From a virus (lineage: Duplodnaviria > Heunggongvirae > Uroviricota > Caudoviricetes), in IMG/VR virus record IMGVR_UViG_2778261673_000008, positions 1 through 43,490 of that record: 43,490 nt of DNA; one strand, 5' to 3'. The notes beneath the pieces were generated by a model. That model was given only the letters and a program-made list of their open reading frames with translations. It was not told where the DNA came from and did not search any database. The position numbers and the translations under genes are program-made. Positions 1 to 39,404 of this stretch are shown here, one piece after another (position 1 is the first letter of the stretch; the number at the start of each line of letters is the position of its first letter).

Positions 1-1257
1 GTGCTTACCGATACAAAATTAAAAAACCTCAAGCCGCAGGACAAACTGTACAAGGTCTCCGATCGTGACGGGCTGTATGTAGCTGTGCTTACGTCAGGTA
101 CGGTCTCGTTTCGCTATGACTACCGTATCAACGGTCGCCGCGAAACACTGGTAATCGGGCAGTATGGGCGTGACGGTATCAGCCTGGCAGAAGCGCGAGA
201 AGAACTGATTGCTGCAAAGAAGCTGCTTAAAGCAGGCCAGTCACCGGCTGCGGCTAAACGTGACGGTATCAAAAAGATTCGTGGTGCCGAGACGTTTGCG
301 GTACATACCGACAGTTATATGAAACACGTCATCCTGGCTGACAGTACCCGCGCAATGAAGCAGGCGGTGATCGACCGTGACATACTTCCTGTTCTTGGTA
401 ACAAAATGATGGCTGAAATTACCACATCGATGGTTCGTGATTTGTGTGACCGGATTGTCGAACGCGGCGGCCGGGCAACAGCAGTGCAGGCCAGGGAGAT
501 CATCAGCAGCGTATACCGTCATGCCAATGACCGTGGTCATGGTTTGTTTAATCCTGCTGCTGACATTAAACCTTCGTCTATCGCCATATTTAAACCACGA
601 GAGCGAACACTGACACCAGAAGAAATTGGTCTGTTCTTCCGCACGCTGGATGCCATTGGTGCTATGGGCACTATGAAAATGGCTTTAAAGCTGGTGCTTA
701 TCACTATGGTTCGTAAAGGCGAATTCACCAATGCAACGTGGGACGAAATAGATTTTAAAAAATGGACATGGACAATTCCTTCAGACCGCATGAAGGGAAG
801 CCGGGCGCACGTTATTTACCTGCCTAAACAGGCACAGGATATATTGGTCGGGCTGCAGATGTGCGCTGGTGGAAGTGAATATCTGGTTCCTGGTCGTTAC
901 AACTTCCGGAAGCCATTATCTAATGCCGCGCTGAACTCTCTGATCGACAGAACGGTGAAAATAATAAATGAAAATGGTGAGCATATTCAGGACTTCACCG
1001 TACACGATATGCGCCGTACAGCCAGTACGTTATTGCATGAGGCTGGTTATCCTTCAGACTGGATTGAAAAGGCTCTGGCACATGAGCAGAAAGGTGTGCG
1101 CGCCGTATATAACAAAGCGGAATACGCCAGACAGCGCGCCTACATGTTGCAGCAGTGGGCAGATATGATTGATTCCTGGATTGACGGGGAGCATACGGAT
1201 CTGATTCCGTTCTCCCCGTCGAAGTTTGAGAAGTGGATGGAAGACAGTAATAAATAA
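1..1257 (+). CDS. int: Tyrosine recombinase / phage integrase (P4-type)
   Basis: 418 aa ORF from GTG at pos 1; N-terminus LTDTKLKNLKP...GLYVAV...FRYDYRINGRRETL is characteristic of P4/CP4-57-type integrases; C-terminal HDMRRTAST catalytic region. Confidence 0.85.
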   Translation: MLTDTKLKNLKPQDKLYKVSDRDGLYVAVLTSGTVSFRYDYRINGRRETLVIGQYGRDGISLAEAREELIAAKKLLKAGQSPAAAKRDGIKKIRGAETFAVHTDSYMKHVILADSTRAMKQAVIDRDILPVLGNKMMAEITTSMVRDLCDRIVERGGRATAVQAREIISSVYRHANDRGHGLFNPAADIKPSSIAIFKPRERTLTPEEIGLFFRTLDAIGAMGTMKMALKLVLITMVRKGEFTNATWDEIDFKKWTWTIPSDRMKGSRAHVIYLPKQAQDILVGLQMCAGGSEYLVPGRYNFRKPLSNAALNSLIDRTVKIINENGEHIQDFTVHDMRRTASTLLHEAGYPSDWIEKALAHEQKGVRAVYNKAEYARQRAYMLQQWADMIDSWIDGEHTDLIPFSPSKFEKWMEDSNK

Positions 1258-3265: not shown

Positions 3266-4147
3266 TTACATAGATGTTTCGTTTAATTCTTCCCGACGAA
3301 CGCTGTAAACGTCGGTGGCTTTTGCCAGCAGTTCGTCATCATCTGAAAGTTTTTGTGCAATGTATTTGTAAGCCTTATCCAGTTCGGAGACAGTGCTGTA
3401 ATTCATCGCTGCGCTGGTAAAGGCCATCAGCATTTCTTCTGGGTCACGGCTATCCGCTTTACGCGTTTGCTCATCAGGCTTTTTCACTGATTTAGCGTTG
3501 ATCAGACTGTTCATTCCCGCAGCAGTAGTCGTTTGCGGAGTAATGTCTCGCTCAACGCGCGGTGCCGTTTCCTGTAATTCGTCAGGGGTGTAAACACCGA
3601 GAAGTACATCAGGAGCGTGCAGGCGAGCCCATCGTTTCGTGCAAAGATAGGCAAGCTGCTGGCGCGGATCCTGTTCCCACAATGGAGAGTTACGCACTCC
3701 GGCTTGCGCCATACTGATGGTAAGCTCACGGGGTTCTGCTTCTCCTTTAAGAACTGCTGACACAGTTACCGTCAGATTCGGTGATTTATCTGTTTTGCCG
3801 TTAACATTCGACCAGTCACCGCTCCAGCGATAATTCAGGCGTGTCGCTAGCAGGCTGGAAGAGGATACGACCGCGTTTACCAACTGTGCTTCGTAGCCTA
3901 ACGTTCCGTTTACCACATGCGTTTTCTGCGCCACGGCGAAAGGGTTCATTCCCCACTGTGCCGCCTGCATGGTCACCGCCAGACAATCGGCAGGTTTGCC
4001 TTCAAGATGTTTCGGTACAGTCGCTTTGCTTTGTGACATCAACTCCGCGAAACGCACCAGTTGATTCATGCCCTCCGGGCTGAAGATTGCCGCAGCAGTA
4101 CCTACAGTTGCGCCTGGTTGTGATGTGATTGCGATATCATTGCTCAT
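3266..4147 (-). CDS. Single-strand annealing protein (RecT/Red-beta-like)
   Basis: 293 aa; QWGMNPF...NGTLGYEAQ resembles the Bet/RecT core; translationally coupled to the downstream exonuclease. Confidence 0.6.
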   Translation of the reverse strand: MSNDIAITSQPGATVGTAAAIFSPEGMNQLVRFAELMSQSKATVPKHLEGKPADCLAVTMQAAQWGMNPFAVAQKTHVVNGTLGYEAQLVNAVVSSSSLLATRLNYRWSGDWSNVNGKTDKSPNLTVTVSAVLKGEAEPRELTISMAQAGVRNSPLWEQDPRQQLAYLCTKRWARLHAPDVLLGVYTPDELQETAPRVERDITPQTTTAAGMNSLINAKSVKKPDEQTRKADSRDPEEMLMAFTSAAMNYSTVSELDKAYKYIAQKLSDDDELLAKATDVYSVRREELNETSM

Positions 4148-4965
4148 ACGTACATATCCTGTTTACGTGCCCAGTCAGGGCGTTTAATAATTTCCACTCC
4201 GCCCCACTCATCGTTGATGCGGCATTCGTGATAGGTATTCAGATCCCGGCGGAACAGAGCGTGCCCGGCATCGACATCCGGCGCATCCAGCTCGAACACG
4301 CGTACCGGATATCGACCACAATCAATGCTTTCGCTCACGGCAAGAAAGAAAAAACCATGCGGCTGACCAGTAACCCTCATTGCGCCTTCGCGGTACATTG
4401 CGTCCTGCACGTGGTAGCGGAATTCCTCGATGTGGCGTGCAAAACGGTCCATATCTGCAACCTTTTTCACGTCGACGATCACGTTGTGCTCGTTCAGCCA
4501 TTTGTCTGGACGAATGCGGCACAACTCACCCGTATCTTCATCGTTCCAGTACATTGATGCTTCGCAGTAACCAGGGGCTTCCAGCATCCAGCGTGCCGCC
4601 GGGTGAGCCATTGCGCTATCACGCATCAGCTCCAGTTTCCGCCACTGCTCGGCATCAAGTACCGTAATCCCCATATCCGCCACATCACGAAGAAATGCCT
4701 CTTCGTCAGCTTTACCTTGTTTCGTCCGACGATCGAATTTCGGTGAAACGATGAAGCGTTTGTCGAATTCTCCAGGTTCCAGAAGCAGGCAGTGCAATGC
4801 GGTTCCCATATCCAGTGCAGACTTTTTCTCTTCGTCTTCTGGTGCTGCCTGAACCCATTTAAGAAGCGCCGGATTCTTGGCAACCATGTCCAGTTGCGAC
4901 TTACTCACGCCGTCACCGGCGTGGTAGTCTTCGTTGCTGATGTCGAAATAAATTCCCGGTTTCAT
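4144..4965 (-). CDS. PD-(D/E)XK exonuclease (RecE / exonuclease VIII C-terminal-domain-like)
   Basis: 273 aa; N-terminal GIYFDISNEDYHAGDG and RPD...VDVKK nuclease motif; paired with the RecT-like gene. Confidence 0.65.
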   Translation of the reverse strand: MKPGIYFDISNEDYHAGDGVSKSQLDMVAKNPALLKWVQAAPEDEEKKSALDMGTALHCLLLEPGEFDKRFIVSPKFDRRTKQGKADEEAFLRDVADMGITVLDAEQWRKLELMRDSAMAHPAARWMLEAPGYCEASMYWNDEDTGELCRIRPDKWLNEHNVIVDVKKVADMDRFARHIEEFRYHVQDAMYREGAMRVTGQPHGFFFLAVSESIDCGRYPVRVFELDAPDVDAGHALFRRDLNTYHECRINDEWGGVEIIKRPDWARKQDMYV

Positions 4966-5262
4966 GCCGCGTCCCTCTGCCCATCAAGCTGATCAGCCAG
5001 ATCCCAGCGGGCGATAATTGCCATTGCCTCTCGCCGATAGGCATCCATCAGTTCTTCGAACTCAGGGCTGTCTTTAGCAGCCTCCAGTACTTCCTGACGA
5101 ACGCCTTTGCCTGTTACAACGTCGAAAGTTGAGGACAGTTGATGAAGTCGGATGCTCTCAATCAGTTCAACTTGTCGGTCATATAGCTGTTCTGACAGGC
5201 GGTAGTCCTTGTCGAATGCCAGCATGATTTTTTGAAGATTTTTCTGCTGATTAACGTTCATT
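4962..5262 (-). CDS. Hypothetical early protein (100 aa)
   Basis: Start taken at MNVNQQ (GGGAGGG RBS 9 nt upstream), not the longer ORF start; no recognised domain. Confidence 0.5.
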
Positions 5263-5569: not shown

Positions 5570-6154
5570 TTATTGTTTGTTTTTTTCGTTCTGGTTGATG
5601 ACAAATTCAATGTAACTTTCGATCTTTGCTTTCTCGGTTTCGGGTAACAATGCGTAGCGCGAGCGATCATAGTTGATGGTCGCAGGGTCGTGCGGGTGAA
5701 TCAGTAATTCATAGCCGTGACGCCCGAATGCGGATGCAACATTCTCCAGGGTGGAAATGGAAACGCTGACCTCATTGTTTAACAGGCGGCTGATTGTCAC
5801 CTGGGCTACGCCGGATGCGCGGTGAAGTTTTCCCTGTGTTGAAAGGTCGCGGCTTTCGCTCATCCAGCGTTCCAGGTTGTGAGCCGCCAGCTGGCCAATG
5901 TCGCTTGGGCCGACAGGCTGAAAACCTTCCTGAGAAAGCGAGCGATCGATATCAAGCCAGTTACGGGGTTTATTGGCGGCAGCTTCAATTTTTCGTGCAA
6001 CCTGGTCGCCGATAACCTTCTTGCCAAGAGCCCAGCGGTTTACCAGATTTGCCTGAGTTCCAAGTTTTTCAGCCATCCGCGTCTGAACACCATTGAATTC
6101 ACGGTCGATCAAGTCGTTGAGATTTTGCCTGCGGACGTCCTGGATACTTTTCAT
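5570..6154 (-). CDS. Phage repressor with two tandem XRE-type HTH domains, no S24 peptidase domain
   Basis: 194 aa; HTH-like segments near residues 25-65 and 110-160; divergent from the Cro-like gene with operators in between; own terminator. Confidence 0.7.
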   Translation of the reverse strand: MKSIQDVRRQNLNDLIDREFNGVQTRMAEKLGTQANLVNRWALGKKVIGDQVARKIEAAANKPRNWLDIDRSLSQEGFQPVGPSDIGQLAAHNLERWMSESRDLSTQGKLHRASGVAQVTISRLLNNEVSVSISTLENVASAFGRHGYELLIHPHDPATINYDRSRYALLPETEKAKIESYIEFVINQNEKNKQ

Positions 6155-6208: not shown

Positions 6209-6273
6209 ATTACCCAACAGGTAAATGCACCTCGTGGGTAACTATCCTTGATTTTTGTTACCTTATAGGTGAA
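6209..6273. promoter_or_regulatory. Right operator region between repressor and Cro-like gene (three sites)
   Basis: ATTACC CAACA GGTAAA (6209-6225), weaker GCACC TCGTG GGTAA (6227-6241), GTTACC TTATA GGTGAA (6257-6273). Confidence 0.55.
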
Positions 6274-6610: not shown

Positions 6611-6689
6611 AAAAAACCAAATATGGTTGATCTTTTTTTTGTGTCAGCACAAAATAACCGTAATCCCAATACTAATAACAGGGCTTACC

Positions 6690-8539: not shown

Positions 8540-8618
8540 ATTACCTTGTAGGTAATAAAATGTTCTAATTTCTATTGATTTCATGTCTTATGTGGTTTTT
8601 AATTACCTAAGGGGTAAA
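8540..8618. promoter_or_regulatory. Two operator palindromes upstream of the 8621 operon
   Basis: ATTACC TTGTA GGTAAT (8540-8556) and ATTACC TAAGG GGTAAA (8602-8618, 3 nt before the ATG), with TATGTGGTT between them. Confidence 0.5.
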
Positions 8619-11111: not shown

Positions 11112-11160
11112 CATGTCACGAGTAGATTATGCATGATGAATTTGATGTGTTTTGAATACT

Positions 11161-11186
11161 GCCGCCAACTATGGCGGCTTTATTTT
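11161..11186 (+). terminator. Rho-independent terminator
   Basis: GCCGCC-AACTAT-GGCGGC followed by TTTATTTT. Confidence 0.7.
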
Positions 11187-11196
11187 GCATGGTACT

Positions 11197-11231
11197 ATTA
11201 CCACAACGGTAACTATTACCACGGTGGTTAT
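11197..11231. promoter_or_regulatory. Two operator palindromes immediately upstream of the small terminase gene
   Basis: ATTACC ACAAC GGTAAC (11197-11213) and ATTACC ACGGT GGTTAT (11215-11231, reaching the start codon). Confidence 0.45.
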
Positions 11232-11826
11232 GATGCCTGCTGAACCTAAAACCTATAAACGCAAATCAACGCAATTTAAGCCACTAACAGCAATGCAGGA
11301 GGCTTATTGCCAGTCATACATCAAAACGCCTGAAAACCAGACTCAGGCAGCGATTAACGCAGGATTCTCCCCAAATACAGCGGCAGTTAAAGCCAGTGTC
11401 ATGATGCGCGATGAACGCATTCAAAAACGGATTGCCGAGTTGATGGAGGAGCGCAACAAACGAATGCGCGTCAGTGCTGATTACGTTCTCATGCGCCTGG
11501 TGGAGATCGACCAGATGGACGTGATCGACATCCTCAACGACGATGGGAGCCTTAAACCAATCCGTGAGTGGCCGAAAATCTGGCGCACTACGCTTAGTGG
11601 CTTTGATCTGTCATCGACCATCATGAACATGAACGAGGATTCGATAGAGACAATCCTCAAAAAAATTAAATGGCCTGACAAGGTGAAGAACCTCGAACTG
11701 ATTGGTAAGCACGTCGACGTCAACGCGTTCAAAGAACGCATGGATGTTAATGTGAATGTGACAATTGCTGATCGCATAGCAGCAGCCAGGAAGAGACTGA
11801 AAGAACGTCAGGATGGCAATCAGTGA
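11230..11826 (+). CDS. Terminase small subunit
   Basis: Start taken at MMPAEPKTYKRKS; AYCQSYIKTPENQTQAAINAGFSPNTAAVKASVMMRDERIQKRI resembles the Terminase_2 small-subunit family; stop overlaps large terminase start. Confidence 0.75.
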   Translation: MMPAEPKTYKRKSTQFKPLTAMQEAYCQSYIKTPENQTQAAINAGFSPNTAAVKASVMMRDERIQKRIAELMEERNKRMRVSADYVLMRLVEIDQMDVIDILNDDGSLKPIREWPKIWRTTLSGFDLSSTIMNMNEDSIETILKKIKWPDKVKNLELIGKHVDVNAFKERMDVNVNVTIADRIAAARKRLKERQDGNQ

Positions 11827-13298
11827 CAGATGCAGCGTTATCTCCTGAAGAGCAGTTGATCGAGGATATTGCAGGGTTCACTCACGATCCGCTTGGCTAT
11901 GCCCTCTATGCGTTCCCGTGGGGGGAAGAGGGGACTGAACTGGCACATGCTTCCGGCCCACGTCAGTGGCAGGCCGATGCGTTCCGAGAGATACGTGATC
12001 ACCTGCAGAATCCAGAGACGCGTTATCAGCCGCTTATGCTGGCACGTGCTTCTGGTCACGGTATTGGTAAATCCGCATTCATCTCAATGCTAATCAACTG
12101 GGGCATGTCCACTTGCGAGGATTGTAAGGTCGTGGTGACCGCCAACACCGACAACCAGCTACGAACGAAGACCTGGCCGGAAATTATCAAGTGGTCGAAC
12201 CTTGCTATCACGAAAGACTGGTTTACCTGTACCGCTACCGCGATGTACAGCAATGATCCTGGGCACGACAAGCGGTGGCGAGCTGACGCAATCCCCTGGT
12301 CTGAGCACAACACTGAGGCATTCGCCGGACTACACAACGAGCGCAAACGCATCATCGTGGTATTCGATGAAGCGTCGAACATTGCGGATCTGGTGTGGGA
12401 AGTTGCTGAGGGTGCGCTTACGGACGAAGACACTGAGATTATCTGGGTGGCGTTCGGAAACCCTACACGTAATACCGGGCGTTTTCGCGAATGTTTCCGC
12501 AAATACAAACACCGCTGGAAAACTGCGCAGATTGACAGCCGGACGGTGGAAGGTACTAACAAACAGCAGTTGCAGAAATGGGTTGATGACTACGGGGAAG
12601 ACAGCGACTTCGTTAAAATCCGTGTGCGCGGCATATTCCCTGATGCATCTGAATTGCAGTTTATCCCTACCGGTCTTACTGATGAGGCAATGAAACGGGT
12701 GGTAACCGCTGCGCAGGTGGCACATGCTCCGGTGATAATCGGTGTTGACCCGGCATATTCAGGCGTTGATGACGCGGTGATATACCTGCGGCAGGGGTTG
12801 CATAGTAAGGTGCTATGGACTGGCAACAAGACCACTGACGATCTGATTATGGCGAAGCGTATCGCTGACTTTGAAGACCAGTATCAGGCTGACGCGGTGT
12901 TCATCGACTTCGGTTACGGAACCGGTCTGAAGTCAATCGGTGACGGCTGGGGGCGCACATGGCAACTTGTTCCGTTCGGTGGTGCGTCAACTGACCCTCA
13001 GATGCTCAACAAGCGCGGGGAGATGTTCAACTCATGCAAGACATGGCTGAGGTTGGGCGGGATGCTGGATGACCAGGAAACAGCGGACGATCTGTCGGCG
13101 GCAGAGTACAAAGTTCGCGTGGACGGTAAAATCGTTATCGAACCGAAGGAAGATATCAAAGAACGACTTGGGCGTTCGCCTGGTAAAGGCGATGCGCTAC
13201 TGCTGACGTTTGCTTTCCCGGTGTCAAAGCGCCTGCGACTTCCCGGGCAGCAGAACCAGCAAGGCAAGGCGCTTACCGAGTACGATCCATATGCTTAG
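11823..13298 (+). CDS. Terminase large subunit
   Basis: 491 aa; Walker A-like ASGHGIGKS and Walker B-like IVVFDEA, then nuclease region; GTG start overlapping terS stop. Confidence 0.85.
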   Translation: MTDAALSPEEQLIEDIAGFTHDPLGYALYAFPWGEEGTELAHASGPRQWQADAFREIRDHLQNPETRYQPLMLARASGHGIGKSAFISMLINWGMSTCEDCKVVVTANTDNQLRTKTWPEIIKWSNLAITKDWFTCTATAMYSNDPGHDKRWRADAIPWSEHNTEAFAGLHNERKRIIVVFDEASNIADLVWEVAEGALTDEDTEIIWVAFGNPTRNTGRFRECFRKYKHRWKTAQIDSRTVEGTNKQQLQKWVDDYGEDSDFVKIRVRGIFPDASELQFIPTGLTDEAMKRVVTAAQVAHAPVIIGVDPAYSGVDDAVIYLRQGLHSKVLWTGNKTTDDLIMAKRIADFEDQYQADAVFIDFGYGTGLKSIGDGWGRTWQLVPFGGASTDPQMLNKRGEMFNSCKTWLRLGGMLDDQETADDLSAAEYKVRVDGKIVIEPKEDIKERLGRSPGKGDALLLTFAFPVSKRLRLPGQQNQQGKALTEYDPYA

Positions 13299-14113
13299 TC
13301 TTTATTTTTATCCTCGAAACCTGATAATCCAGATAGAACACCAAAGTTATTAAAAACGTTTGGCTTACCAGATTTTAATCCGGATAAGTTGTGTTGCTCC
13401 AAAAAGTTGCTAATTGTTTGGCCGTTGCCAAGTGCAAGGCTTTTTATTTGAGATTTTTCAGGGTATTTGAGTTTGTATTCGTCGAAATCATTTTGGAGGG
13501 TCTTATATGCCTCATTCATTCTTCCAAGAGTTTCCGATATCTCTTTTAATGAATGATTTAGAGCTGCTAACTGAGCACTGGCGGATCTCAATTCGTCATC
13601 TTTAGCTTTCAACTCGGCAGTCAATTCCCCCATACTATTCTTTGATCGAATAATCTCTTCTTTCATCTCTTGGATGTCTTTTTCCGCGCCAGTCTTAACT
13701 TTGTCGTATGTAACATCTTTTTTAGCCAATAACCTCTGCAGTCTTGTTTCACGCTGGATTTTTCTTGCCTTCAGGTGATTTTCGATTGAGTCATTATTAT
13801 CAAGAGGCTTTGCTTGCCATACGTTAATGATATTGTTTACCCATGGTAATAGGCAGCAGATAGCAATTACAGATAAGCATGGATAAAACATAACAGTTTT
13901 CCATGTGCTGTTATCTGAGATATATGAAATTTTATCTATTATGTTTGATTTGCTAAAAAATAGATAAAGAATTGATTTCCAGTTGAAGGCGCACCAGGAC
14001 ATAACAAAAGCACCAAGCACAGGGTTTTTGGCTCGATTCACGGCAGTATTGGCAGTAGATAAAAACAGCTCTTTGAACGATTCAAACATGCTAATTACCT
14101 TGAAGTTTTTCAT
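13295..14113 (-). CDS. AT-rich moron: membrane protein with long coiled-coil domain
   Basis: Start taken at MKNFKV; two hydrophobic segments (about residues 32-53 and 73-96), then a 130-aa K/E-rich coiled coil; opposite strand to flanking late genes; operator palindrome 4 nt upstream of the ATG. Confidence 0.5.
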   Translation of the reverse strand: MKNFKVISMFESFKELFLSTANTAVNRAKNPVLGAFVMSWCAFNWKSILYLFFSKSNIIDKISYISDNSTWKTVMFYPCLSVIAICCLLPWVNNIINVWQAKPLDNNDSIENHLKARKIQRETRLQRLLAKKDVTYDKVKTGAEKDIQEMKEEIIRSKNSMGELTAELKAKDDELRSASAQLAALNHSLKEISETLGRMNEAYKTLQNDFDEYKLKYPEKSQIKSLALGNGQTISNFLEQHNLSGLKSGKPNVFNNFGVLSGLSGFEDKNKD

Positions 14114-14116
14114 GAT

Positions 14117-14133
14117 TATACCTTTAAGGTAAT
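14117..14133. promoter_or_regulatory. Operator palindrome TATACC-N5-GGTAAT overlapping the moron promoter
   Basis: Minus-strand reading ATTACCTTAAAGGTATAATCATG: palindrome includes a TATAAT hexamer directly before the ATG. Confidence 0.45.
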
Positions 14134-14148
14134 TTGCGGTCATCAAGC

Positions 14149-14172
14149 AAAAAAATGCCCGGCGAACCGGGC
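14149..14172 (-). terminator. Rho-independent terminator between tRNA and moron
   Basis: GCCCGG-CGAA-CCGGGC hairpin with T-run on the minus strand. Confidence 0.6.
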
Positions 14173-14249
14173 GAACTGGAAGCAATGAGTTATGCCTTCC
14201 GTGGCTGTACTGGTTTACAGCATGAAGTCATCGCAATGGCGTCCTGCTG

Positions 14250-14292
14250 TAAAAAGGGCGGTGATAGTCCTTCAAGGGAAACTATCACCGCC
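14250..14292 (-). terminator. Long stem-loop / terminator 3' of the tRNA
   Basis: 12-bp stem GGCGGTGATAGT / ACTATCACCGCC with 12-nt loop, followed on the minus strand by CTTTTTA. Confidence 0.5.
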
Positions 14293-14335
14293 AAGCACCT
14301 GGAACTTCTGGCATCACGGTCCTTAGGCGTGATTC

Positions 14336-14412
14336 TGGCGTGGCATGCAGGATTCGAACCTGCGACCAACCGCTTAGAAGGCGGTTGCTCTGTCCAACTG
14401 AGCTAATGCCAC
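14336..14412 (-). tRNA. tRNA-Arg (anticodon UCU), phage-encoded
   Basis: Hand-folded cloverleaf: acceptor GTGGCAT/ATGCCAC, D-arm GCTC/GAGC, anticodon stem ACCGC/GCGGT with loop CTTCTAA, T-arm GCAGG-TTCGAAT-CCTGC, encoded CCA. Confidence 0.85.
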
Positions 14413-14733
14413 AACGCTGAGAGCACTTAGCCTGTTAAGGCGCCACACTTTGTCGCGGCTCCATAAATGCTCTCATCGTTGTACCCTCGTCTCTTCCGAG
14501 GCGTCACACCGAATCGCCGGGATGGTGAATCCCCGTGCGCGGAATAAAACCGCTCGACTTGCACATTCCGGCTACCTGGTTCGTTTGCCCGAGCAAGGGA
14601 GGGTGCCCCTTAAACGTATCCAGACCGCTATCGGCGCATGTGCCATACGCCGTACTGCTCAAAATAAAAGCTCACTCCACCTGTTCAATTTAACGACAAG
14701 CCAGTCAGGTTAATAACCGGAATGAACTCTTTG

Positions 14734-14750
14734 ATTACCTGAAAGGTAAT
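14734..14750. promoter_or_regulatory. Operator palindrome ATTACC TGAAA GGTAAT upstream of the portal operon
   Basis: Perfect palindrome; followed about 40 bp later by CATATGTGGTT and GGTAATAA, the same composite element as at 34,549-34,619. Confidence 0.5.
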
Positions 14751-14839
14751 AATTTGTGCGTTAAATGTCAACTATCTACGATAAATAAATCATATGTGGT
14801 TAAATTGGTAATAATTTAATTGCGTACGGAGTCATTGAT

Positions 14840-15046
14840 ATGTGCATGGGTAGCTCACCATCAGTGCCTGCAACACCAGAAGTTCAGGCAGCACCACAGG
14901 AGCAGGATGCCGCCGTTGTTGATGCCCGCGACGAAGAAACTCGTCGCCGTCGCGCTGCTGCTGGTCGTAGTTCTACGCTGCTTACCGGTTCTCAGGGCGA
15001 CACATCAACCGCTAATACCAGCGGTAAAACGCTGCTTGGTCAGTAA
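14840..15046 (+). CDS. Small hypothetical protein (68 aa)
   Basis: GGAG RBS; initiation region GGAGTCATTGATATG nearly identical to that of the portal gene (GGAGTCATTGAAATG). Confidence 0.4.
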   Translation: MCMGSSPSVPATPEVQAAPQEQDAAVVDARDEETRRRRAAAGRSSTLLTGSQGDTSTANTSGKTLLGQ

Positions 15047-15060
15047 CCGGAGTCATTGAA

Positions 15061-16740
15061 ATGGCGGAAACAACTAAAGAGCGATTGAACAAACAGTTCG
15101 CACAACTTGAAAGCGAGCGTCAGTCGTTCGAGCCGCACTGGCGCGAGTTGAGTGATTACATCAACCCGCGTGGTTCCCGCTTTCTGACTTCTGAGGTCAA
15201 CCGTAACGATCGGCGCAATACACGCATTATTGATTCGACCGGGACTATGGCGGCGCGCACTCTCGCCAGCGGCATGATGTCAGGCATCACAAGCCCCGCG
15301 CGTCCGTGGTTTCGCCTGGCTACGCCAGATCCTGAAATGATGGATTATGGCCCTGTTAAGTTGTGGCTTGAGGCGGTGCAGAACCGCATGAACGATATGT
15401 TCAATAAGTCGAATCTCTATCAGTCGCTGCCGCAGTTATACGGAAGCCTCGGCACATACAGCACTGGTGCAATGGCAGTGCTGGAGGATGACGAGGACAT
15501 CATTCGCACAATGCCATTCCCGATAGGCAGTTACTACCTGGCTAACTCACCTCGTGGCAGTGTGGACACCTGTTTTCGCAAGTTCTCTATGACTGTTCGT
15601 CAGCTTGTTCAGGAGTTCGGGCTAAATAACGTCAGCGAATCCGTAAAAAGCATGTGGGAAAGCGGCACCTACGAGAAGTGGATTGAAGTGATGCATTCGG
15701 TTTACCCGAACATTGACCGCGATACATCGAAGCTGGATAGCAAGAACAAGCCATTCAAATCGGTTTATTACGAGGTTGGTGGCGATAACGACAAGTTGTT
15801 GCGTGAGTCCGGATTCGATGAGTTTCCAATTATGGCTCCGCGCTGGGAAGTTAACGGCGAAGATGTTTATGGATCATCATGCCCGGGTATGCTGGCGCTT
15901 GGACCTGTTAAGGCATTGCAGCTTCTCCAGAAGCGCAAGTCGCAGTTGATTGATAAAGCCACCAATCCGCCGATGGTTGCTCCGACTTCCCTCAAGAATC
16001 AGCGCGCCTCCCTTCTTCCTGGCGACATCACGTATATCGATCAGATTACTGGTCAGGATGGCTTCAGGCCTGCTTATCTGGTTAACCCCAGTACAGCAGA
16101 TTTGGTGGCAGACATTCAGGACACTCGTCAAATCATTAACAGCGCCTACTTTGTCGATCTGTTCATGATGTTGCAGAACATCAATACCCGCTCGATGCCT
16201 GTTGAAGCGGTGATCGAAATGAAAGAAGAAAAACTTCTGATGTTGGGGCCGGTTCTGGAGCGTCTGAACGACGAATGTCTTAATCCTCTCATTGACCGCG
16301 CTTTCTCGATGATGGTGCGTAAAAACATGCTGCCGCCACCGCCTGACGCGATGGAAGGCATGCCCCTGAAGGTCGAATACATTTCCGTCATGGCTCAGGC
16401 GCAGAAGTCTATCGGCCTGTCCAGTCTGGCGTCCACGGTTAACTTCATTGGTCAACTTGCGCAAGCGAAACCAGAAGCTCTCGACAAACTCAACGTTGAT
16501 CAGGCGATCGATGCATTCGCTGATATGTCCGGAGTGTCTCCAACCGTCATTGTTCCGCAGGAACAGGTTGAGCATGCTCGCCAGCAACGGGCACAGCAGC
16601 AACAGCAGCAACAAATGATGGCGATGGGGATGGCGGCGGCACAGGGTGCCAAGACGCTAAGCGAAGCTAAAACTTCGGATCCGAGTGTTTTGTCAGCTAT
16701 GGCGAATGCAGTTAGTGGTCAGGGTGGGCAATCACAATGA
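15061..16740 (+). CDS. Portal (head-to-tail connector) protein, podovirus type
   Basis: 559 aa, T7 gp8-like size; position after the terminase genes; C-terminal Q-rich tail. Confidence 0.75.
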   Translation: MAETTKERLNKQFAQLESERQSFEPHWRELSDYINPRGSRFLTSEVNRNDRRNTRIIDSTGTMAARTLASGMMSGITSPARPWFRLATPDPEMMDYGPVKLWLEAVQNRMNDMFNKSNLYQSLPQLYGSLGTYSTGAMAVLEDDEDIIRTMPFPIGSYYLANSPRGSVDTCFRKFSMTVRQLVQEFGLNNVSESVKSMWESGTYEKWIEVMHSVYPNIDRDTSKLDSKNKPFKSVYYEVGGDNDKLLRESGFDEFPIMAPRWEVNGEDVYGSSCPGMLALGPVKALQLLQKRKSQLIDKATNPPMVAPTSLKNQRASLLPGDITYIDQITGQDGFRPAYLVNPSTADLVADIQDTRQIINSAYFVDLFMMLQNINTRSMPVEAVIEMKEEKLLMLGPVLERLNDECLNPLIDRAFSMMVRKNMLPPPPDAMEGMPLKVEYISVMAQAQKSIGLSSLASTVNFIGQLAQAKPEALDKLNVDQAIDAFADMSGVSPTVIVPQEQVEHARQQRAQQQQQQQMMAMGMAAAQGAKTLSEAKTSDPSVLSAMANAVSGQGGQSQ

Positions 16741-31573: not shown

Positions 31574-31599
31574 ACAAAAAAAGCCCGCAGCGCGGGCTT
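31574..31599 (-). terminator. Rho-independent terminator of the 31598-32137 gene
   Basis: AAGCCCGC-AGC-GCGGGCTT hairpin with 7-nt T-run on the minus strand, overlapping the stop codon. Confidence 0.75.
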
Positions 31600-32137
31600 A
31601 CCAAAACTTGTACCACGGTGATTTATCCTTCAATGGACAATCCTTCCATCGTGTGGCCAACCATTCATATTCTTTAAAATATGTGTTTATGTTTTCTTTT
31701 TCTCTAATGGCTTGTATAAGAGGTAGCGCAATCTGATAGTTATTTACAACGGAGCTGTAAAATACTTCCTTAATCATGGTCTCATCATAAGTTTTCCGCT
31801 TCACGCTCACAGCCATGCGTTCGTAGAAACCTAGACAGTAAATTATTTCTCTCTTCTCTGTCTTTTCTTCATCCGTAAGATCAGCCTGCCCATTGCTTGG
31901 ATACATATAAGAGCGGAATGATTTGTTCGATTCGTGAATGCGGCGCATAGTAGATAGGCCTTTCTTATAATCTACATCAAACCTGCTTTCACCAAGGAAT
32001 ACTGAAGTGTGTACTTTTCTCGCTGTATTTACATTATAAATAATAGTAGCGATAGCTATGAACAAGCCAAGCGAAACCGCGACTGCACTTACTATTTGAG
32101 CCACGGCCATGGCAAATTGCATTTCTTCACTTAACAC
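31598..32137 (-). CDS. AT-rich membrane-anchored protein of unknown function
   Basis: Single N-terminal TM helix then a 150-aa domain rich in Y/K/E; very low GC relative to neighbours; own terminator. Start GTG 32137 or ATG 32122. Confidence 0.5.
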   Translation of the reverse strand: MLSEEMQFAMAVAQIVSAVAVSLGLFIAIATIIYNVNTARKVHTSVFLGESRFDVDYKKGLSTMRRIHESNKSFRSYMYPSNGQADLTDEEKTEKREIIYCLGFYERMAVSVKRKTYDETMIKEVFYSSVVNNYQIALPLIQAIREKENINTYFKEYEWLATRWKDCPLKDKSPWYKFW

Positions 32138-32346: not shown

Positions 32347-33057
32347 TCAGAAGAACCCTGCTTTGTCGTTGATATACTCCGCGTGGGTCTGGATATCACG
32401 CAGGCATTTGCTCACACCGACAATGTAGCAGAACATGGTGGTCAGCTCCGCCGCCGCGCCCGATACATCATGCCCGTCGTCCTGCAACTGATTCAGCAGA
32501 TTCATCAGCAATGAGTTCTCCGTCAGGCCGAGAACACCAGACGGCGAATGAATCAGACTGCGGTAGCCGGGCTTCAGTGGGGCACTGTAGGTTTTGTTCT
32601 CTATCTTCATTGCCTGCATCACTGCTGACGCCGTGGCGTTGGCTACCTGGTCGGCAACCATCTTTATGCGTTCTTCCTGCGGGAACGAGTTTTTAATGTA
32701 GCTTCCTGTTCGACGGATCTGAGGAAGTACCTCACCTGTAACCCATTTACGAAAGCGGTAGGGGATAGTGCCTAGTGTCACTGCGTCGCGGCAGCGGAGG
32801 ATCAGTGTGTAGAGGCCTGACTCGGAGATGATGTTGATCTCTTTTACTCGGCTGTCAAAAATTGCACGATGTTCATGCCCTATGTTGAACATAGACCTTT
32901 CATCATCATCCAGTTTTTCAAGTGCTTGGGTGACGTTTTGGATACGCAGCGCACTACAAACGTCTTGGGCTACAAACCATGGTTGGCCATCGATAATGAT
33001 GGAACGGATAGGGTTAACAGATTCAAATTTGAAGATGGCAGTTTGAGCATTAGCCAT
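32347..33057 (-). CDS. Bro-N domain antirepressor-like protein
   Basis: Start taken at MANAQTAIFKFE (GGAG RBS); N-terminal IFKFESVNPIRSIIIDGQPWFVAQDVCSAL is a Bro-N signature; C-terminal domain is paralogous to ORF 34206-34463. Confidence 0.7.
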   Translation of the reverse strand: MANAQTAIFKFESVNPIRSIIIDGQPWFVAQDVCSALRIQNVTQALEKLDDDERSMFNIGHEHRAIFDSRVKEINIISESGLYTLILRCRDAVTLGTIPYRFRKWVTGEVLPQIRRTGSYIKNSFPQEERIKMVADQVANATASAVMQAMKIENKTYSAPLKPGYRSLIHSPSGVLGLTENSLLMNLLNQLQDDGHDVSGAAAELTTMFCYIVGVSKCLRDIQTHAEYINDKAGFF

Positions 33058-33325
33058 GGTGGTTATCTCCACTTAGTGATTTTAATCACCACCGCAACGC
33101 CAATTACTGGTGGTGAACTGGACAAGGTTGGCGTACCGGCCTAAGTGGTACCGGTGTCCTTTCGGACCCCTGCCCAGCCCACCATAATTCGGATATAGCT
33201 GTGCTTAACGCATAAAAAAACCACGTCTGGCGTGGTATGCGCCACTTAGTAACCCGGGACGCCAATCCCGGCACTGGATTTTGCCAGTGCCCGATTACTA
33301 TGGCACAAGAGGAGTGCGATGTAAA

Positions 33326-33435
33326 TTTACCGAAAAGGTAATGATAAGCGCGAATAAATATCAAAATCAACCGTATTTGGTTGATGGAGTTTAATGCTTG
33401 ATCACCTGAAAGCAAGATATTACCTTTAAGGTAAT
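33326..33435. promoter_or_regulatory. Two operator palindromes in the divergent region between Bro and the 33455 gene
   Basis: TTTACC GAAAA GGTAAT (33326-33342) and ATTACC TTTAA GGTAAT (33419-33435, 20 nt before the ATG). Confidence 0.5.
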
Positions 33436-34500: not shown

Positions 34501-34548
34501 TATCAAATAATTTATTTGCTATCCAGCACGTTTTGAAAATTACCTGAA

Positions 34549-34565
34549 AGGTAATATCTGTTCGA
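34549..34565. promoter_or_regulatory. Operator palindrome ATTACC TGAAA GGTAAT upstream of the tailspike gene
   Basis: Identical to the site at 14734-14750; followed by CATATGTGGTT (34594-34604) and GGTAATAAAAT (34610-34620). Confidence 0.5.
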
Positions 34566-34658
34566 ATTCACAGTCTATCTATCCATATGTGGTTTTTCAG
34601 GTAATAAAATAACCGGATATGCGGCGCAACGGGTGCTGCGACTATCTGGAGATTTAAC

Positions 34659-37342: not shown

Positions 37343-37460
37343 AAAAACACGTTTTCAATGATCATTTGTCATGATTACCATTTATCCATAAATGGTTTAT
37401 TGTGTATGATGGACTGACCAAACTAAGGAGGTTCATCATGCATAGTAAACGGTGGTCATC

Positions 37461-37865
37461 ATGTCTGCATCGCTAACCGCTGATACAATAAATCAGGGGC
37501 TTAGCTATGGTGCGCTGGCAGCAGTCATCGCCGGCGTACCTCCTGAAGTGGCGCTGGGATCGCTGGCCGGGGCGGTAATTTTTGTTACCTCTGCAGTTGA
37601 GTATCCGTTCAAGCGCCGCGTTCTCCTGGCGCTACTCAGCTTTCTCTGCGGTCTTCTCTTCTACAAACCCACAGCATCAATCCTTATCGGCGTTGCCAGC
37701 ATGATCCCCACCATCACACAGGACTCGTTCGAGCGGGGCATTGTCTACTCCGCCGGCGCGTTCGTTGCCGCAATTGTCGCGGTGCGGGTTGGGATATGGC
37801 TGTATCACCGCTCTGACAATCCGCGCGATTTAATCCCGGGAGGAAAAGACGATGACAGGCCATGA
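37461..37865 (+). CDS. Putative holin-like membrane protein
   Basis: Several hydrophobic segments, charged C-terminus, directly upstream of the lysis genes; start ambiguous (GTG 37452 or ATG 37461). Confidence 0.5.
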   Translation: MSASLTADTINQGLSYGALAAVIAGVPPEVALGSLAGAVIFVTSAVEYPFKRRVLLALLSFLCGLLFYKPTASILIGVASMIPTITQDSFERGIVYSAGAFVAAIVAVRVGIWLYHRSDNPRDLIPGGKDDDRP

Positions 37866-38157
37866 TCTGCTGCTTATCGCTAATTCCATCATCTGCGGCG
37901 GTATAGCGCTGCGGGTGATGTTCTTCCAGCGCAACGGATCGCGCCATCGCCGCTGGGGCGGGTGGATAGCCTATTTCCTCATCGTGGCGGCGGCCAGCAT
38001 CCCGCTGCGCACCGCGTACTCATACCTGTACCACTTCCCTATGACCGCAGATCTTTCTGAGGTCGTTATCAATGCTGTGATGTTCGCCGCGGTGCTGAAG
38101 ACACGCGGCAACGTCGTGCAAATCTTCAAGATATCGAGGTCGCAACATGGACATTAA
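37852..38157 (+). CDS. Putative holin/antiholin membrane protein
   Basis: 101 aa with 2-3 TM segments, GGAGGAAAAG RBS, immediately before the endolysin gene. Confidence 0.45.
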   Translation: MTGHDLLLIANSIICGGIALRVMFFQRNGSRHRRWGGWIAYFLIVAAASIPLRTAYSYLYHFPMTADLSEVVINAVMFAAVLKTRGNVVQIFKISRSQHGH

Positions 38158-38776
38158 CGAGTTTCAGAAAGCTGCCGGCGTTAACTTGTCGCTGGCCACG
38201 CGCTGGCATCCGCACATTGTGGCGGCCATGAAAGAGTTTGGCATCATCAAGCCGCTGGATCAGGCGATGTTTATTGCCCAGGCCGGGCATGAAAGCACTG
38301 GCTTTACCCAGCTCGTTGAGAGCTTCAATTACAGCGTGGCGGGGCTGGCTGGTTTCGTCCGTGCCGGGCGACTGACGCAGGGCCAGGCTAATTCCCTCGG
38401 GCGCCGGCAGGGTGAACCATCGTTGCCACTGGAGAGGCAGCGGGCCATTGCCAATCTGGTGTACAGTAAACGCATGGGGAATAACGGGCCGACAGACGGC
38501 TGGTTTTACCGCGGGCGCGGGCTTATCCAGATCACCGGGCTGAACACCTATCGCGACTGCGGCAACGGCTTGAAGGTGGATCTGGTTAAGCAGCCGGAGC
38601 TGCTGGCGCAGGACGAGTATGCAGCGCGGAGCGCGGCGTGGTACTTCGTGAAATATGGATGCCTGAAGTACACCGACGACCTGATGCGCGTCACGCAGAT
38701 CATCAACGGCGGGCAGAATGGCATCGACGATCGCCGTGTGCGTTACCTGTCGGCCAAGAAGGCGCTGGCATCATGA
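38147..38776 (+). CDS. Endolysin, glycoside hydrolase family 19 (chitinase-like lysozyme)
   Basis: Motifs FIAQAGHESTGF and YRGRGLIQITGLNTYRDCG are typical of GH19 phage lysozymes. Confidence 0.85.
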   Translation: MDINEFQKAAGVNLSLATRWHPHIVAAMKEFGIIKPLDQAMFIAQAGHESTGFTQLVESFNYSVAGLAGFVRAGRLTQGQANSLGRRQGEPSLPLERQRAIANLVYSKRMGNNGPTDGWFYRGRGLIQITGLNTYRDCGNGLKVDLVKQPELLAQDEYAARSAAWYFVKYGCLKYTDDLMRVTQIINGGQNGIDDRRVRYLSAKKALAS

Positions 38777-39255
38777 TCACGGCATTCGTGAAAGCATACT
38801 GGAAACAGTTGCTTATCGTGTCGATGCTTGCTGCTCTGGTGGCCGGCGGCGTTATAGCCTGGAATATTCACGGTGACAGACAGTACGACGCCGGGTATGC
38901 GCAGGCGAAGGCTGACCGCAAAGCAGAAGATGAGAAAGCCCGTCAACATGATGAACAGGAGAAAGCAACCAATGAACGTGAGGCGCAGCAGAGGATCGAC
39001 CAGGCGCGCAATGATGCTCTTGATGCTGCCGCTCGCGCTGGCCGGCTGCAGCAGCAGCTCGTTGCCATCCGTGAGCAGCTCAGGCAGTATAACGCCACTG
39101 TCGGCGCTGGGTCGTCAGCCGCAGACACCGGAGTTTTGCTTGCCGACGTGCTCAGCAAATCTCTCGAGAGAAACAGACAACTGGCAGAGTATGCTGACCG
39201 GGCAGCCGAAGCCGGAAGAGTCTGCGAAAAACAGTACGACACCCTGACCAGATAG
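38773..39255 (+). CDS. i-spanin (Rz-like)
   Basis: ATG overlaps the endolysin stop; N-terminal TM helix then charged coiled coil; contains an embedded lipoprotein ORF in another frame. Confidence 0.7.
   Translation: MITAFVKAYWKQLLIVSMLAALVAGGVIAWNIHGDRQYDAGYAQAKADRKAEDEKARQHDEQEKATNEREAQQRIDQARNDALDAAARAGRLQQQLVAIREQLRQYNATVGAGSSAADTGVLLADVLSKSLERNRQLAEYADRAAEAGRVCEKQYDTLTR
39011..39249 (+). CDS. o-spanin (Rz1-like lipoprotein) embedded in the Rz gene
   Basis: +1-frame ORF MMLLMLPLALAGCSSSS...: lipobox LAGC, Pro/Ser-rich mature part, ends 6 nt before the Rz stop. Confidence 0.65.
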
Positions 39256-39404
39256 CATGGCATTTTTCATGGTACTGATTTCCGGTGACGGTATATAAAA
39301 CGGTACGAGGAAAATTTAGCTTTAGAAAAGTGTTATCACTCAATTGGTTATGGCGTCCGTAAATAATTGAGTGGGAATGATTTGACCCTGCACTATGAAT
39401 GAAC

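Follow-up and report, generated by a model that had tools for sequence, protein, structure and literature searches.

The morons of the lambdoid phages HK97 and HK022, reportedly described by Juhala et al. in 2000, are extra genes of different base composition whose flanking genes are direct neighbors in related phages, with a promoter and a terminator of their own, and HK97 gp15 is an inner-membrane exclusion protein. The ban operon of phage P1 is C1-operator-controlled and comprises a dicF-like region, tRNA-Asn, tRNA-Thr, tciABC, tRNA-Ile, and ban. Rare-codon tRNAs are found in prophages (ileZ-argN-argO of Stx phages, comparable to host argU), and HK022 encodes put, an RNA of ∼70 nt and two stems that acts in cis as an antiterminator just downstream of pL. 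In epsilon15 and phiV10, the gap between the large terminase gene (terL) and the portal operon holds a cargo gene of the Pfam family Phage_gp49_66 (phiV10p03; ABK13674 in epsilon15) that has no promoter of its own, its ribosome-binding site beginning at a terminator T-run, and that is followed by a bidirectional terminator.

The window analyzed here (43,490 nucleotides, the whole stretch of DNA) derives from an Escherichia coli prophage of the genus Uetakevirus, phiV10/epsilon15-like, and carries between terL and the portal operon a leftward transcription unit in which a conserved RNA, a tRNA, and terminators precede a cargo slot (table 1). The slot has the same position and orientation as that of epsilon15 and phiV10, downstream of the same terminator, but its cargo is unrelated and has a predicted promoter; the bidirectional terminator of other slot variants is missing, and no terminator was found 3′ of the cargo gene. 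Like the lambdoid morons, this is an extra gene between genes adjacent in relatives, with a different base composition and a small membrane protein as its product; a predicted promoter is conserved with it. The gene differs from the lambdoid morons in lacking a terminator of its own, in bearing an operator of the phage repressor on its predicted promoter, and in lying inside a conserved antisense RNA/tRNA unit rather than at a bare gene junction. Similar to the P1 ban operon, the unit is a probably repressor-controlled accessory operon that combines accessory genes with tRNAs and a DicF-like element, and P1 has both the same structured RNA (155 bits with our covariance model R1, 2 nt past tRNA-Ile) and, at the 3′ end of its dicF-like region, a homolog of the terminator 2 region; the order of elements and the cargo differ, however, and P1 C1 is unrelated to the HTH_3 repressor Rep with its motif ATTACC-N5-GGTAAT. 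The tRNA resembles other prophage rare-codon tRNAs in that it reads AGA in a temperate coliphage with AGA-enriched genes, but it has a distinct sequence and lies on the strand opposite to that of the late genes, as part of an RNA unit that is probably under repressor control. A rare-codon tRNA plus an accessory gene of unknown function is a routine finding in a temperate phage, and the cassette is to that extent ordinary; what stands out is an unannotated RNA that precedes the tRNA.

Table 1. Features of the leftward unit and of the surrounding prophage (window coordinates)
Feature	Position	Strand	Details or basis
Integrase	1-1257		
Cargo gene, 264 aa	13295..14089	-	Homolog starts, phrog_4780, dN/dS, AlphaFold, hydropathy/heptads
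Predicted short 5′ UTR	14090..14109	-	Sequence reading; conserved CAGAAAAAA...AGG...ATG layout in homologous loci
Predicted sigma-70-like cargo promoter	14115..14143	-	-35 ATGACC 14143-14138, 17-nt spacer, -10 TATAAT 14120-14115
Operator-like palindrome ATTACCTTAAAGGTATA	14117..14133	.	2 mismatches to ATTACC-N5-GGTAAT
Terminator 2, predicted	14149..14172	-	GCCCGG-TTCG-CCGGGC hairpin 14172-14157, then T7 ATTTTTTT
Terminator 1, predicted; DicF-like	14250..14303	-	14-bp hairpin 14292-14257, then CTTTTT
Phage tRNA-Arg(UCU), CCA encoded	14336-14412	-	ARAGORN; Rfam RF00005
19-bp helix, 3′ arm abutting tRNA 5′ end	14411..14482	-	Inverted repeat I2; compensatory changes in alignment A2
Conserved structured RNA core, ∼200 nt, 7 helices, 32 base pairs	14469..14665	-	Covariation; model R1
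Perfect operator ATTACCTGAAAGGTAAT overlapping putative leftward promoter	14734..14771	-	Operator at 14734-14750
Lysis cassette, complete	37452-39255		Holin, endolysin, Rz-like genes
Attachment core ATTGAGTGGGAATGATT	39366-39382		

The tRNA and Its Terminators

PhiV10-type phages integrate at the 3′ end of guaA (PMC9782041). The attachment core of the present prophage, beyond which host yfgI/yfgH/yfgF-like genes follow, lies far from the tRNA, which is phage cargo and not the integration site, as an earlier note on this DNA had held.

The tRNA-Arg(UCU) recognized in that note is real (anticodon TCT), being called by ARAGORN and scoring 73.3 bits against RF00005, for which the gathering score is 29. 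The best-matching host tRNA-Arg shares 85.9% identity with it over positions 7–77. Of 77 close relatives, 76 carry the phage tRNA, and 505 E. coli records contain copies at ≥95% identity; GenBank records of Uetakevirus already annotate it. AGA makes up 7.4 per 1,000 codons in the phage genes and 15 per 1,000 in the cargo gene, and the tailspike gene contains 11 AGA codons. In standard codon tables E. coli uses AGA at ∼2 per 1,000 codons, and relative to this figure AGA is enriched ∼3-fold in the phage genes. We predict that the phage tRNA supplements AGA decoding.

The two terminator-like hairpins were likewise recovered, in minus-strand orientation and in the interval separating the tRNA from the cargo gene, and both are predicted intrinsic terminators conserved in Salmonella, Klebsiella, and Citrobacter relatives. 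The resemblance of terminator 1 to DicF is partial in alignment, and its identification as a DicF sRNA (RF00039) was rejected (16.9 bits, E = 1.7, positions 14256–14303, with a gathering threshold of 48 bits). In other genera variable inserts take the place of the tRNA; ARAGORN called these inserts only at a low threshold and inconsistently, and we therefore do not call them tRNAs or tmRNAs. The tRNA, both terminators, and ∼430 nt of noncoding sequence (14149–14839) are retained by almost every E. coli relative and, in part, by other genera, and only 13295–14148, comprising the promoter and the gene, is variable. The single minus-strand cassette originally envisaged is thus variable in its gene, but the tRNA and terminators belong instead to a leftward noncoding unit conserved throughout Uetakevirus.

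A Structured RNA Ahead of the tRNA

The RNA upstream of the tRNA is unannotated and had gone unnoticed in the first reading of the sequence. In alignments A3 and A4, 96.6–98% of cells are paired, compared with 27–45% in slid controls, and 11 pairs show compensatory changes. The covariation score was matched by none of 500 shuffles, and the result for pairs with compensatory change by 0/500 on A3 and 9/500 on A4. Model R1 scores 173.5 bits on the core in the window. The folding energy of the leader alone is unremarkable (z = −1.6), the structure being revealed by covariation only. Rfam gave no match for it in this region at E up to 10 and nothing for the leader RNA in 15 related loci at the gathering threshold, and literature searches found no mention of its invariant 15-mer. 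The 19-bp helix that follows is the counterpart of a feature annotated as “RNaseIII mRNA processing” in epsilon15.

Upstream of the RNA, a putative leftward promoter (TTGACA at 14771–14766, a 17-nt spacer, and TACCTT at 14748–14743, matching the −10 consensus at 3/6 positions) overlaps a perfect operator. The TTGACA and the operator are invariant across 10 genera, and the epsilon15 equivalent of the operator is annotated with repressor and IHF binding. As read from the sequence, this is likely the start of the RNA–tRNA unit, and the operator may also serve the rightward promoter of the portal operon. The epsilon15 annotators placed the equivalent operator on the rightward strand, which, like the weak −10 box, counts against a leftward promoter.

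The RNA is always co-oriented with its own transcription unit. Lambdoid/Stx phages account for 42 of the 71 IMG/VR hits, where it lies ∼25 nt past the predicted pL and downstream of diverse cI genes; it is also found in the ban operon of P1-like phages, following tRNA-Ile, and in Uetakevirus, where it leads the leftward unit of RNA, tRNA, and cargo. Among 5,426 complete E. coli genomes the region was matched in 1,095, with the structured RNA in part of these. Its place in lambdoid/Stx phages is that of putL/nutL, and in Uetakevirus it precedes two terminators through which a promoterless cargo must be read, whereas its ∼200 nt and seven helices set it apart from the much simpler put. A relationship by descent was rejected, a search of the complete HK022 genome with R1 (E up to 1) being negative, and the likeness to put is one of position only. 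By this analogy, we tentatively raise the possibility of an undescribed regulatory RNA family, of temperate enterobacterial phages, acting in cis like put, through antitermination or Rho resistance. Such an action would let the untranslated tRNA unit, and a promoterless cargo behind two terminators, be expressed after derepression. Downstream terminators, sought as support for antitermination, were not predicted in the P1 and Stx contexts, so that the idea is drawn from position only.

A Variable Cargo Slot

The earlier reading of the gene as accessory is supported in that it is swappable: in prophages with TerL 98–99% identical it is missing or replaced. Among 77 such IMG/VR prophages the terL-to-portal gap ranges from 1,045 to 2,207 bp; 11 carry this cargo family and 4 have an empty slot. 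Similarity of phiV10, phiv142-3, and TL-2011b to the cassette is confined to its flanks, the slot of phiv142-3 being empty. The slot is hypervariable and accommodates at least seven unrelated cargo families (Phage_gp49_66, phrog_4846, phrog_27507, phrog_3163, phrog_3054, an HNH endonuclease, and the present coiled-coil family), and no known defense systems were found among the alternative cargo genes. In most other variants, the ribosome-binding site of the cargo starts right after the T-run of terminator 2. Distant TerL relatives (50–58% identity) lack the slot, as their gap is only ∼300 bp. Homologs of the cargo protein at 24–33% identity occupy the equivalent slot in Rahnella, Pantoea, and other prophages, and the coiled-coil family appears to have been long resident there.

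Its location 3′ of the phage tRNA gene would allow the variable DNA to be taken for an integrative element targeting that gene, in the manner of genomic islands at host tRNAs. However, ∼190 nt separate the tRNA from the junction, which falls at the terminator T-run/ribosome-binding site, there is neither an integrase nor a repeated tRNA 3′ end, and relatives without the tRNA possess the same slot. We dropped this reading on the absence of repeats and a recombinase, and it is the least probable of those considered here. The cargo swaps resemble homologous or illegitimate recombination at the shared flanks, that is, the end of terL and the terminator.

Start Codon, Predicted Promoter, and Probable Repressor Control

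The gene is AT-rich, as had been noted, with a GC content of 36–38% over 13300–14050 compared with 53–56% in terL and portal, and its TAA stop codon (13297–13295) overlaps the TAG of terL (13296–13298). The TATAAT recognized before it is accompanied, 17 nt upstream, by ATGACC, giving 10 of 12 consensus matches, and this putative promoter is conserved alongside the gene across loci of E. coli, Salmonella, Klebsiella, and Rahnella. Transcription likely starts in the A-run at ∼14109–14106, and the PGAP-annotated ATG 14113 lies upstream of this predicted start.

In the earlier note, the gene was an 818-bp open reading frame translated from ATG 14113 on a leaderless or nearly leaderless transcript, the TATAAT driving a start at or just before that codon to give a 272-aa protein. 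This form is indeed the PGAP annotation (WP_000787773.1), and ATG 14113 is only 1 nt past the TATAAT box. A start ∼7 nt past the −10 box would nonetheless fall downstream of that ATG. The homologous proteins all begin M(L/F)ES, equivalent to ATG 14089, the alignment with the phrog_4780 profile (3e-137) begins at residue 9 of the 272-aa version, and a Shine-Dalgarno sequence, AAGG at 14101–14098, stands 8 nt upstream of ATG 14089. ATG 14113 itself is a lineage-specific change from CAG to CATG within the conserved 5′ UTR, all other family members reading CAGAAAA at this point. Because the start is ATG 14089 with its Shine-Dalgarno sequence, the transcript is not leaderless, and we regard the longer form as very improbable.

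A palindrome does overlap the TATAAT, as previously seen, but the motif recurs elsewhere in the phage and copies the dispersed repressor operator of the genus, ATTACC-N5-GGTAAT, which has 31 strand-matches in the window versus 0.9 expected, with copies in the repressor/cro intergenic region (6209–6273). The status of the motif as a repressor site is taken from the GenBank annotation of epsilon15, in which the identical motif is labeled a “repressor” binding site at seven places. The cargo copy overlaps the spacer and the −10 box, and both mismatches fall in the half overlapping the −10 box (GGTATA instead of GGTAAT). The cargo gene is therefore probably gated by the repressor in the lysogen and not a constitutive moron. 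We predict that Rep keeps the cargo promoter mostly silent during lysogeny and that the protein is produced upon infection or induction; the putative promoter travels with the gene, bringing the operator copy across its spacer and −10 box. In a sister phage, overexpression of the repressor lowers lysis-gene transcripts by >99.9% (PMC9782041). Against this, the Klebsiella prophage L013 has the same promoter palindrome together with cI/cro operators of another type; the palindrome there is therefore not the site of the resident repressor and may be a relic or the target of another binder.

The Cargo Protein and Its Possible Role

The protein comprises an N-terminal membrane domain (residues 1–100), a continuous coiled coil (∼95–210), and a disordered, fast-diverging tail. 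Of two transmembrane segments suggested earlier, one is strongly hydrophobic (∼62–92, Kyte-Doolittle 2.15) and the other marginal (∼24–45, 1.23); the long coiled coil is upheld by hydrophobic fractions of 0.71/0.69 at heptad a/d positions over residues 95–210. AlphaFold produced a poor model without an alignment (pLDDT 60) and a good one with it (pLDDT 85), and in the latter a single helix spans residues 63–208. Residues 92–130 contain 10 Lys/Arg, and by the positive-inside rule the coiled coil is predicted to be cytoplasmic, on a protein modeled as anchored in the inner membrane. By sequence comparison the gene is real and under purifying selection, with a dN/dS of 0.13 overall and 0.41 in the tail relative to the Salmonella homolog. 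We found 177 homologs. Divergence is modular, with 65–72% identity in the N-terminal domain versus 20–66% in the tail, and the family of the N-terminal domain comprises ∼1,130 clusters at 50% identity.

Pfam, NCBIfam, and PADLOC-DB 2.0, searched with the protein and 103 family members, returned coiled-coil noise only and no kinship with any known exclusion or defense family; matches to DndD, LmuB, JetC, and SMC were all below curated cut-offs and confined to the coiled coil. Matches in PHROGs were only to families without known function, and Foldseek of the AlphaFold model against PDB and BFVD gave nothing below E = 0.5. Neither in sequence nor in fold was the cargo protein found to resemble HK97 gp15 or other Sie proteins.

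The anatomy of the locus, its conservation, the corrected start codon, the purifying selection, and the operator-motif match are established. As an explanation of the whole, we favor, with a probability of roughly 0.55, a conserved leftward unit with a repressor-gated membrane coiled-coil cargo that acts in conflict. The protein would act at the inner membrane in phage–phage or phage–host conflict, possibly excluding superinfecting DNA, or countering or triggering membrane-based defense in the course of lytic growth. Its activity would reside in the conserved membrane hairpin, with specificity conferred by the rapidly diverging coiled coil and tail.

A classical moron, expressed constitutively in the lysogen for superinfection exclusion at the inner membrane like HK97 gp15 or P22 SieA, would share the putative promoter, opposite orientation, AT-richness, patchy distribution, and membrane anchor seen here, and the degenerate half-site, along with a palindrome in a prophage of different immunity type, implies that repression may be weak or absent. 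An operator-like site over the spacer and −10 box is hard to square with constitutive expression, the gene lacks a dedicated terminator, and homology to known Sie or defense proteins was not found; we consider such a moron doubtful, although deserving of some weight. Apparent gating by the repressor would also suit a protein of the lytic program and not of conflict or exclusion, such as a modulator of lysis timing or the holin, a protein tethering replication or packaging to the membrane, or an anti-defense factor, as would the predicted cytoplasmic coiled coil and the retention of the family in one slot of epsilon15-like phages across deep divergence. The gene is dispensable, however, most relatives with TerL 98–99% identical lacking it or holding unrelated cargo, and a complete lysis cassette is already present elsewhere in the prophage, so that we think a lytic role unlikely, and less probable than a moron.

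Implications

Under the favored reading of a repressor-gated conflict protein, the cargo gene would exemplify accessory cargo integrated into immunity control instead of escaping it. The terL-to-tRNA slot is a natural point of cargo exchange and may be a compact hunting ground for new phage-conflict genes, and the large family to which the N-terminal membrane domain belongs is still without a Pfam model. The locus also contains a covariation-supported RNA, without an Rfam family, that is common to lambdoid/Stx, P1-like, and epsilon15-like phages and stands at the position of an antitermination signal. Should it prove functional in cis, it would represent just the second RNA-only antiterminator class known from phages.

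A Variable Cargo Slot on a Conserved Backbone

The whole 13200–14900 stretch is present in 39 E. coli records (37 of 5426 complete genomes) at 98.8–99.9% identity or more, and megablast matches only its flanks in phiV10, phiv142-3, TL-2011b, the O157 typing phages 9 and 10, and related Uetakevirus. Among 80 IMG/VR prophages with 98–99% identical TerL and 47 more distant genomes, terL and the portal gene lie between 1045 bp (empty slot) and 2207 bp apart. The cassette that the earlier note placed here is real but its boundaries were drawn wrongly, as 13295–14148 alone varies, and the tRNA and terminators belong to a conserved backbone. This backbone (14149–14839, running from terminator 2 past the tRNA as far as the small gene that precedes the portal gene) is 97–99% identical in all E. 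coli loci and recognizably conserved in other genera. Of the 77 E. coli loci long enough to reach the portal gene, 76 carry the tRNA. TerL relatives at 50–58% identity have no slot.

The slot carries at least seven unrelated cargo families, with a function assigned for an HNH endonuclease alone; the family found in the window occupies 11 of 77 loci. In most variants the ribosome-binding site of the cargo gene directly follows the terminator T-run without a promoter, and a bidirectional terminator separates cargo from terL; the window's variant has its own predicted promoter and lacks the bidirectional terminator. Unrelated cargo genes share a junction in which AAGGTG comes directly after the T-run and ATG about 7 nt later (loci L001, 2040–2110; L002, 1700–1740; and L144), and therefore appear to have been swapped precisely behind a common ribosome-binding site, needing terminator read-through. 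Even the "empty" slot retains a 7-codon remnant ORF. The window's cargo gene is of an ordinary kind: an accessory gene at a hot spot for phage cargo, beside a rare-codon phage tRNA. A second AT-rich gene (39% GC), which lies near the tailspike region and matches DUF4760 (8e-31), likewise appears to be of accessory or moron type. A lysis cassette is also encoded in the window.

Features of the window, in window coordinates
Feature	Position	Strand	Remark
Integrase	1-1257
Operator sites	5435, 5497, 6209, 6257, 6594, 8540, 8602, 14117, 14734, 32266, 33326, 33419, 34539, 35800
Perfect operators	14734-14750, 33419-33435, 34539-34555
HTH_3 repressor (Rep)	5570-6154	-
CATATGTGGTT(T/A) motif	6614-6625	-
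CATATGTGGTT(T/A) motif	8587-8598, 14791-14802, 34584-34595
Small terminase subunit	11152-11826
terL	11823-13298
Cargo gene	13295-14089	-	264 aa
Predicted cargo promoter	14143-14115	-	ATGACC-17 nt-TATAAT
Second terminator hairpin and T-run	14172-14157	-
Region homologous to P1 dicF-like 3' end	14149-14190	-
First terminator hairpin and T-run	14292-14257	-
DicF-like match over first terminator hairpin	14250-14303	-	16.9 bits
tRNA-Arg(TCT)	14336-14412	-
19-bp helix	14411-14482	-
Structured RNA	14469-14665	-	173.5 bits
Portal gene	15061-16740
DUF4760 gene	31598-32137	-
BRO-N anti-repressor-like gene	32347-33072		beside C4, isrK and two operators
C4 antisense RNA	33106-33189	-	63.6 bits
isrK	33214-33290	-	67.7 bits
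att core	39366-39382		host genes beyond

A Structured RNA Ahead of the tRNA

Between the tRNA and the portal operon, 430 nt of noncoding DNA are conserved. An alignment of 16 sequences, drawn from at least eight genera plus P1, mEp460, and one Stx2a phage, resolves an RNA of ~200 nt with seven helices (32 pairs) in which 98% of cells are paired, compared with 27–44% in slid controls. Compensatory changes occur in 11 pairs, a number reached by none of 500 shuffles, and invariant U-G pairs together with frequent G-U pairs place the RNA on the minus strand, that of the tRNA. Its invariant 15-mer GCCGGAATGTGCAAG occurs in more than 120 IMG/VR contigs, and 73 of these loci yielded 71 full-length matches (94–184 bits) that repeat the covariation picture (96.6% paired, 154 compensatory cells). 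A covariance model derived from the 16-sequence alignment detects the RNA once in the window and once in P1 (155 bits); in epsilon15 it recovers a reduced copy, and in HK022 it has no match. A search of Rfam 15 with E up to 10 returned no match to the RNA.

The structured RNA occurs in three settings. In lambdoid and Stx phages, 42 hits follow cI genes of various types in the same orientation, ~25 nt past the predicted pL. P1-like phages carry the RNA in the C1-controlled ban operon, upstream of ban, with its start 2 nt past the tRNA-Ile, and Uetakevirus has it between tRNA-Arg and the operator region. One IMG/VR lambdoid contig (L170) has two tandem co-oriented copies ~800 nt apart downstream of cI (3984–4165 and 4791–4970).

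A covarying 19-bp helix joins the structured RNA to the tRNA, its 3' arm ending at the first base of the tRNA, and corresponds to an "RNaseIII" processing feature annotated in epsilon15. The same helix follows the structured RNA in Stx2a_1447 (L145, ~1676–1800). The strand of the tRNA also bears two terminator-like hairpins, each with a T-run, as the earlier note had proposed. The first resembles DicF below the Rfam threshold, and the region of the second shares homology with the 3' end of the annotated "dicF-like region" in the P1 ban operon.

The tRNA and Its Replacements

Both ARAGORN and Rfam support the tRNA-Arg(UCU) called from sequence. Over positions 7–77 it shares 85.9% identity with the best host tRNA-Arg, and copies at 95% identity or more are found in 505 E. 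coli records. The att core given for phiV10/epsilon15-type phages (PMC9782041) lies at the far end of the prophage, bordering host genes, so the tRNA at 14.3 kb is, as the earlier note stated, internal phage cargo and not the integration site. The default explanation for such a tRNA is codon supplementation. Per 1000 codons, AGA is used 7.4 times in genes of the prophage and 15 times in the cargo gene, against ~2 times in E. coli in standard codon tables. In the prophage, AGA codons are concentrated in the tail, injection, tailspike, and replication genes, with none in the portal or capsid genes.

In genera without tRNA-Arg, unrelated inserts of 100–230 nt occupy its exact place (L097, L098, L099, L100, L104, and L010; alignment A2 of related loci, columns ~690–915). 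GTTGTGGTG...CACCACAAC(CA) closes the inserts, a subset of which also carries an ACCA tail and T-arm-like GGTTCGAnTCC hairpins. ARAGORN did not call the inserts as tRNAs or tmRNAs.

The Cargo Gene and Its Product

The cargo gene is real, with a dN/dS of 0.13 against its Salmonella homolog and an AlphaFold pLDDT of 85 with an alignment. Its stop codon overlaps that of terL, and its AT richness is evident from a GC content of 36–38% compared with 53–56% in the neighbors. The start at 14113 read in the earlier note agrees with PGAP/RefSeq (272 aa, WP_000787773.1, 13295–14113), but the conserved start is ATG 14089, so that the annotated start is 24 nt too far upstream and the protein has 264 aa. 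Nearly all of 120 homologs are ~240–275 aa and open with M(L/F)ES, the phrog_4780 alignment begins at residue 9 of the 272-aa form, and AAGG lies 8 nt upstream of ATG 14089. The sequence after the -10 box is CAGAAAAAA in homologous loci and CATGAAAAA in the window lineage; judged from this comparison, the extra ATG at 14113 is a lineage-specific change within the 5' UTR. Because of the conserved start and its AAGG, the mRNA is predicted to carry a short leader, against the leaderless reading proposed previously.

The long coiled coil reported earlier is borne out by a single predicted helix over residues 63–208 (AlphaFold) with an unbroken heptad pattern, which the positive-inside rule puts in the cytoplasm. 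Of the two transmembrane segments also reported, one is strongly hydrophobic and the second marginal. Searches of Pfam, NCBIfam, and PADLOC gave nothing past coiled-coil noise, and no fold match to the protein model was found. A large family is defined by the N-terminal ~100 aa: it comprises 1130 clusters (50% identity, E up to 1e-3), lacks a Pfam model, and showed no Pfam or PADLOC domain in any of 103 members. This domain is always N-terminal, in coiled-coil proteins of 220–390 aa, and bears the motif R-x-K-N-P-x-x-G-A-F-x-x-S-W-x-x-F-N-W-K; in alignment A1 of proteins with the domain (P0121–P0268), N36 is invariant and R19, P23, G26, F28, W32, W37, S46, P70, and P82 nearly so. Within the close family, identity is 65–72% in the membrane domain and falls to 20–30% in the tail. 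Such a pattern would fit a conflict protein in which the membrane-active part is conserved and the recognition part variable. Homologs at just 24–33% identity fill the same slot in other epsilon15-like prophages. One homolog adjoins hok in a chromosomal islet.

Proposed Control by the Phage Repressor

The palindrome ATTACC-N5-GGTAAT occurs at no fewer than 13 places in the window (31 strand-matches with up to 3 mismatches vs. 0.9 expected), including the repressor/cro intergenic region. The sites are often paired 62 bp apart around promoters and stand upstream of operons for early, structural (portal), anti-repressor, and tailspike genes. This distribution suggests direct silencing of many operons by a single repressor, in the manner of P1 C1. 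Exactly this motif is annotated as a "repressor" binding site at seven places in the epsilon15 GenBank record, among them the counterpart of 14734–14750, which has IHF and "RNaseIII" features nearby. Four copies of the motif CATATGTGGTT(T/A) are present (0.44 expected), each preceding an operon at a distance of ~40–45 nt from an operator; the motif may belong to a promoter module specific to the phage, such as an extended -10 box. The C4 antisense RNA, isrK, BRO-N gene, and operators resemble the immI region of P1/P7, and form a second immunity region in a Uetakevirus.

The predicted cargo promoter has 10 of 12 consensus matches and is overlapped by a palindrome, as the earlier note observed; this operator-like site, ATTACCTTAAAGGTATA, covers the spacer and -10 box. 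The whole promoter with its palindrome accompanies the cargo gene in E. coli, Salmonella, Rahnella, and one Klebsiella prophage. We infer that Rep gates the cargo gene in Uetakevirus hosts; in the Klebsiella prophage, where the cI/cro operators differ, the palindrome would be a relic or serve another factor.

A Possible Role for the Structured RNA

The most interesting element of the locus is the structured RNA that heads the conserved unit, just outside the region described in the earlier note and not seen there. It occupies a position similar to that of putL/nutL, and has no homology to HK022 put. No terminators are predicted downstream of it in the P1 and Stx contexts. The putL/nutL-like position, together with two terminators before promoterless cargo, suggests that the structured RNA may act in cis as an antiterminator.
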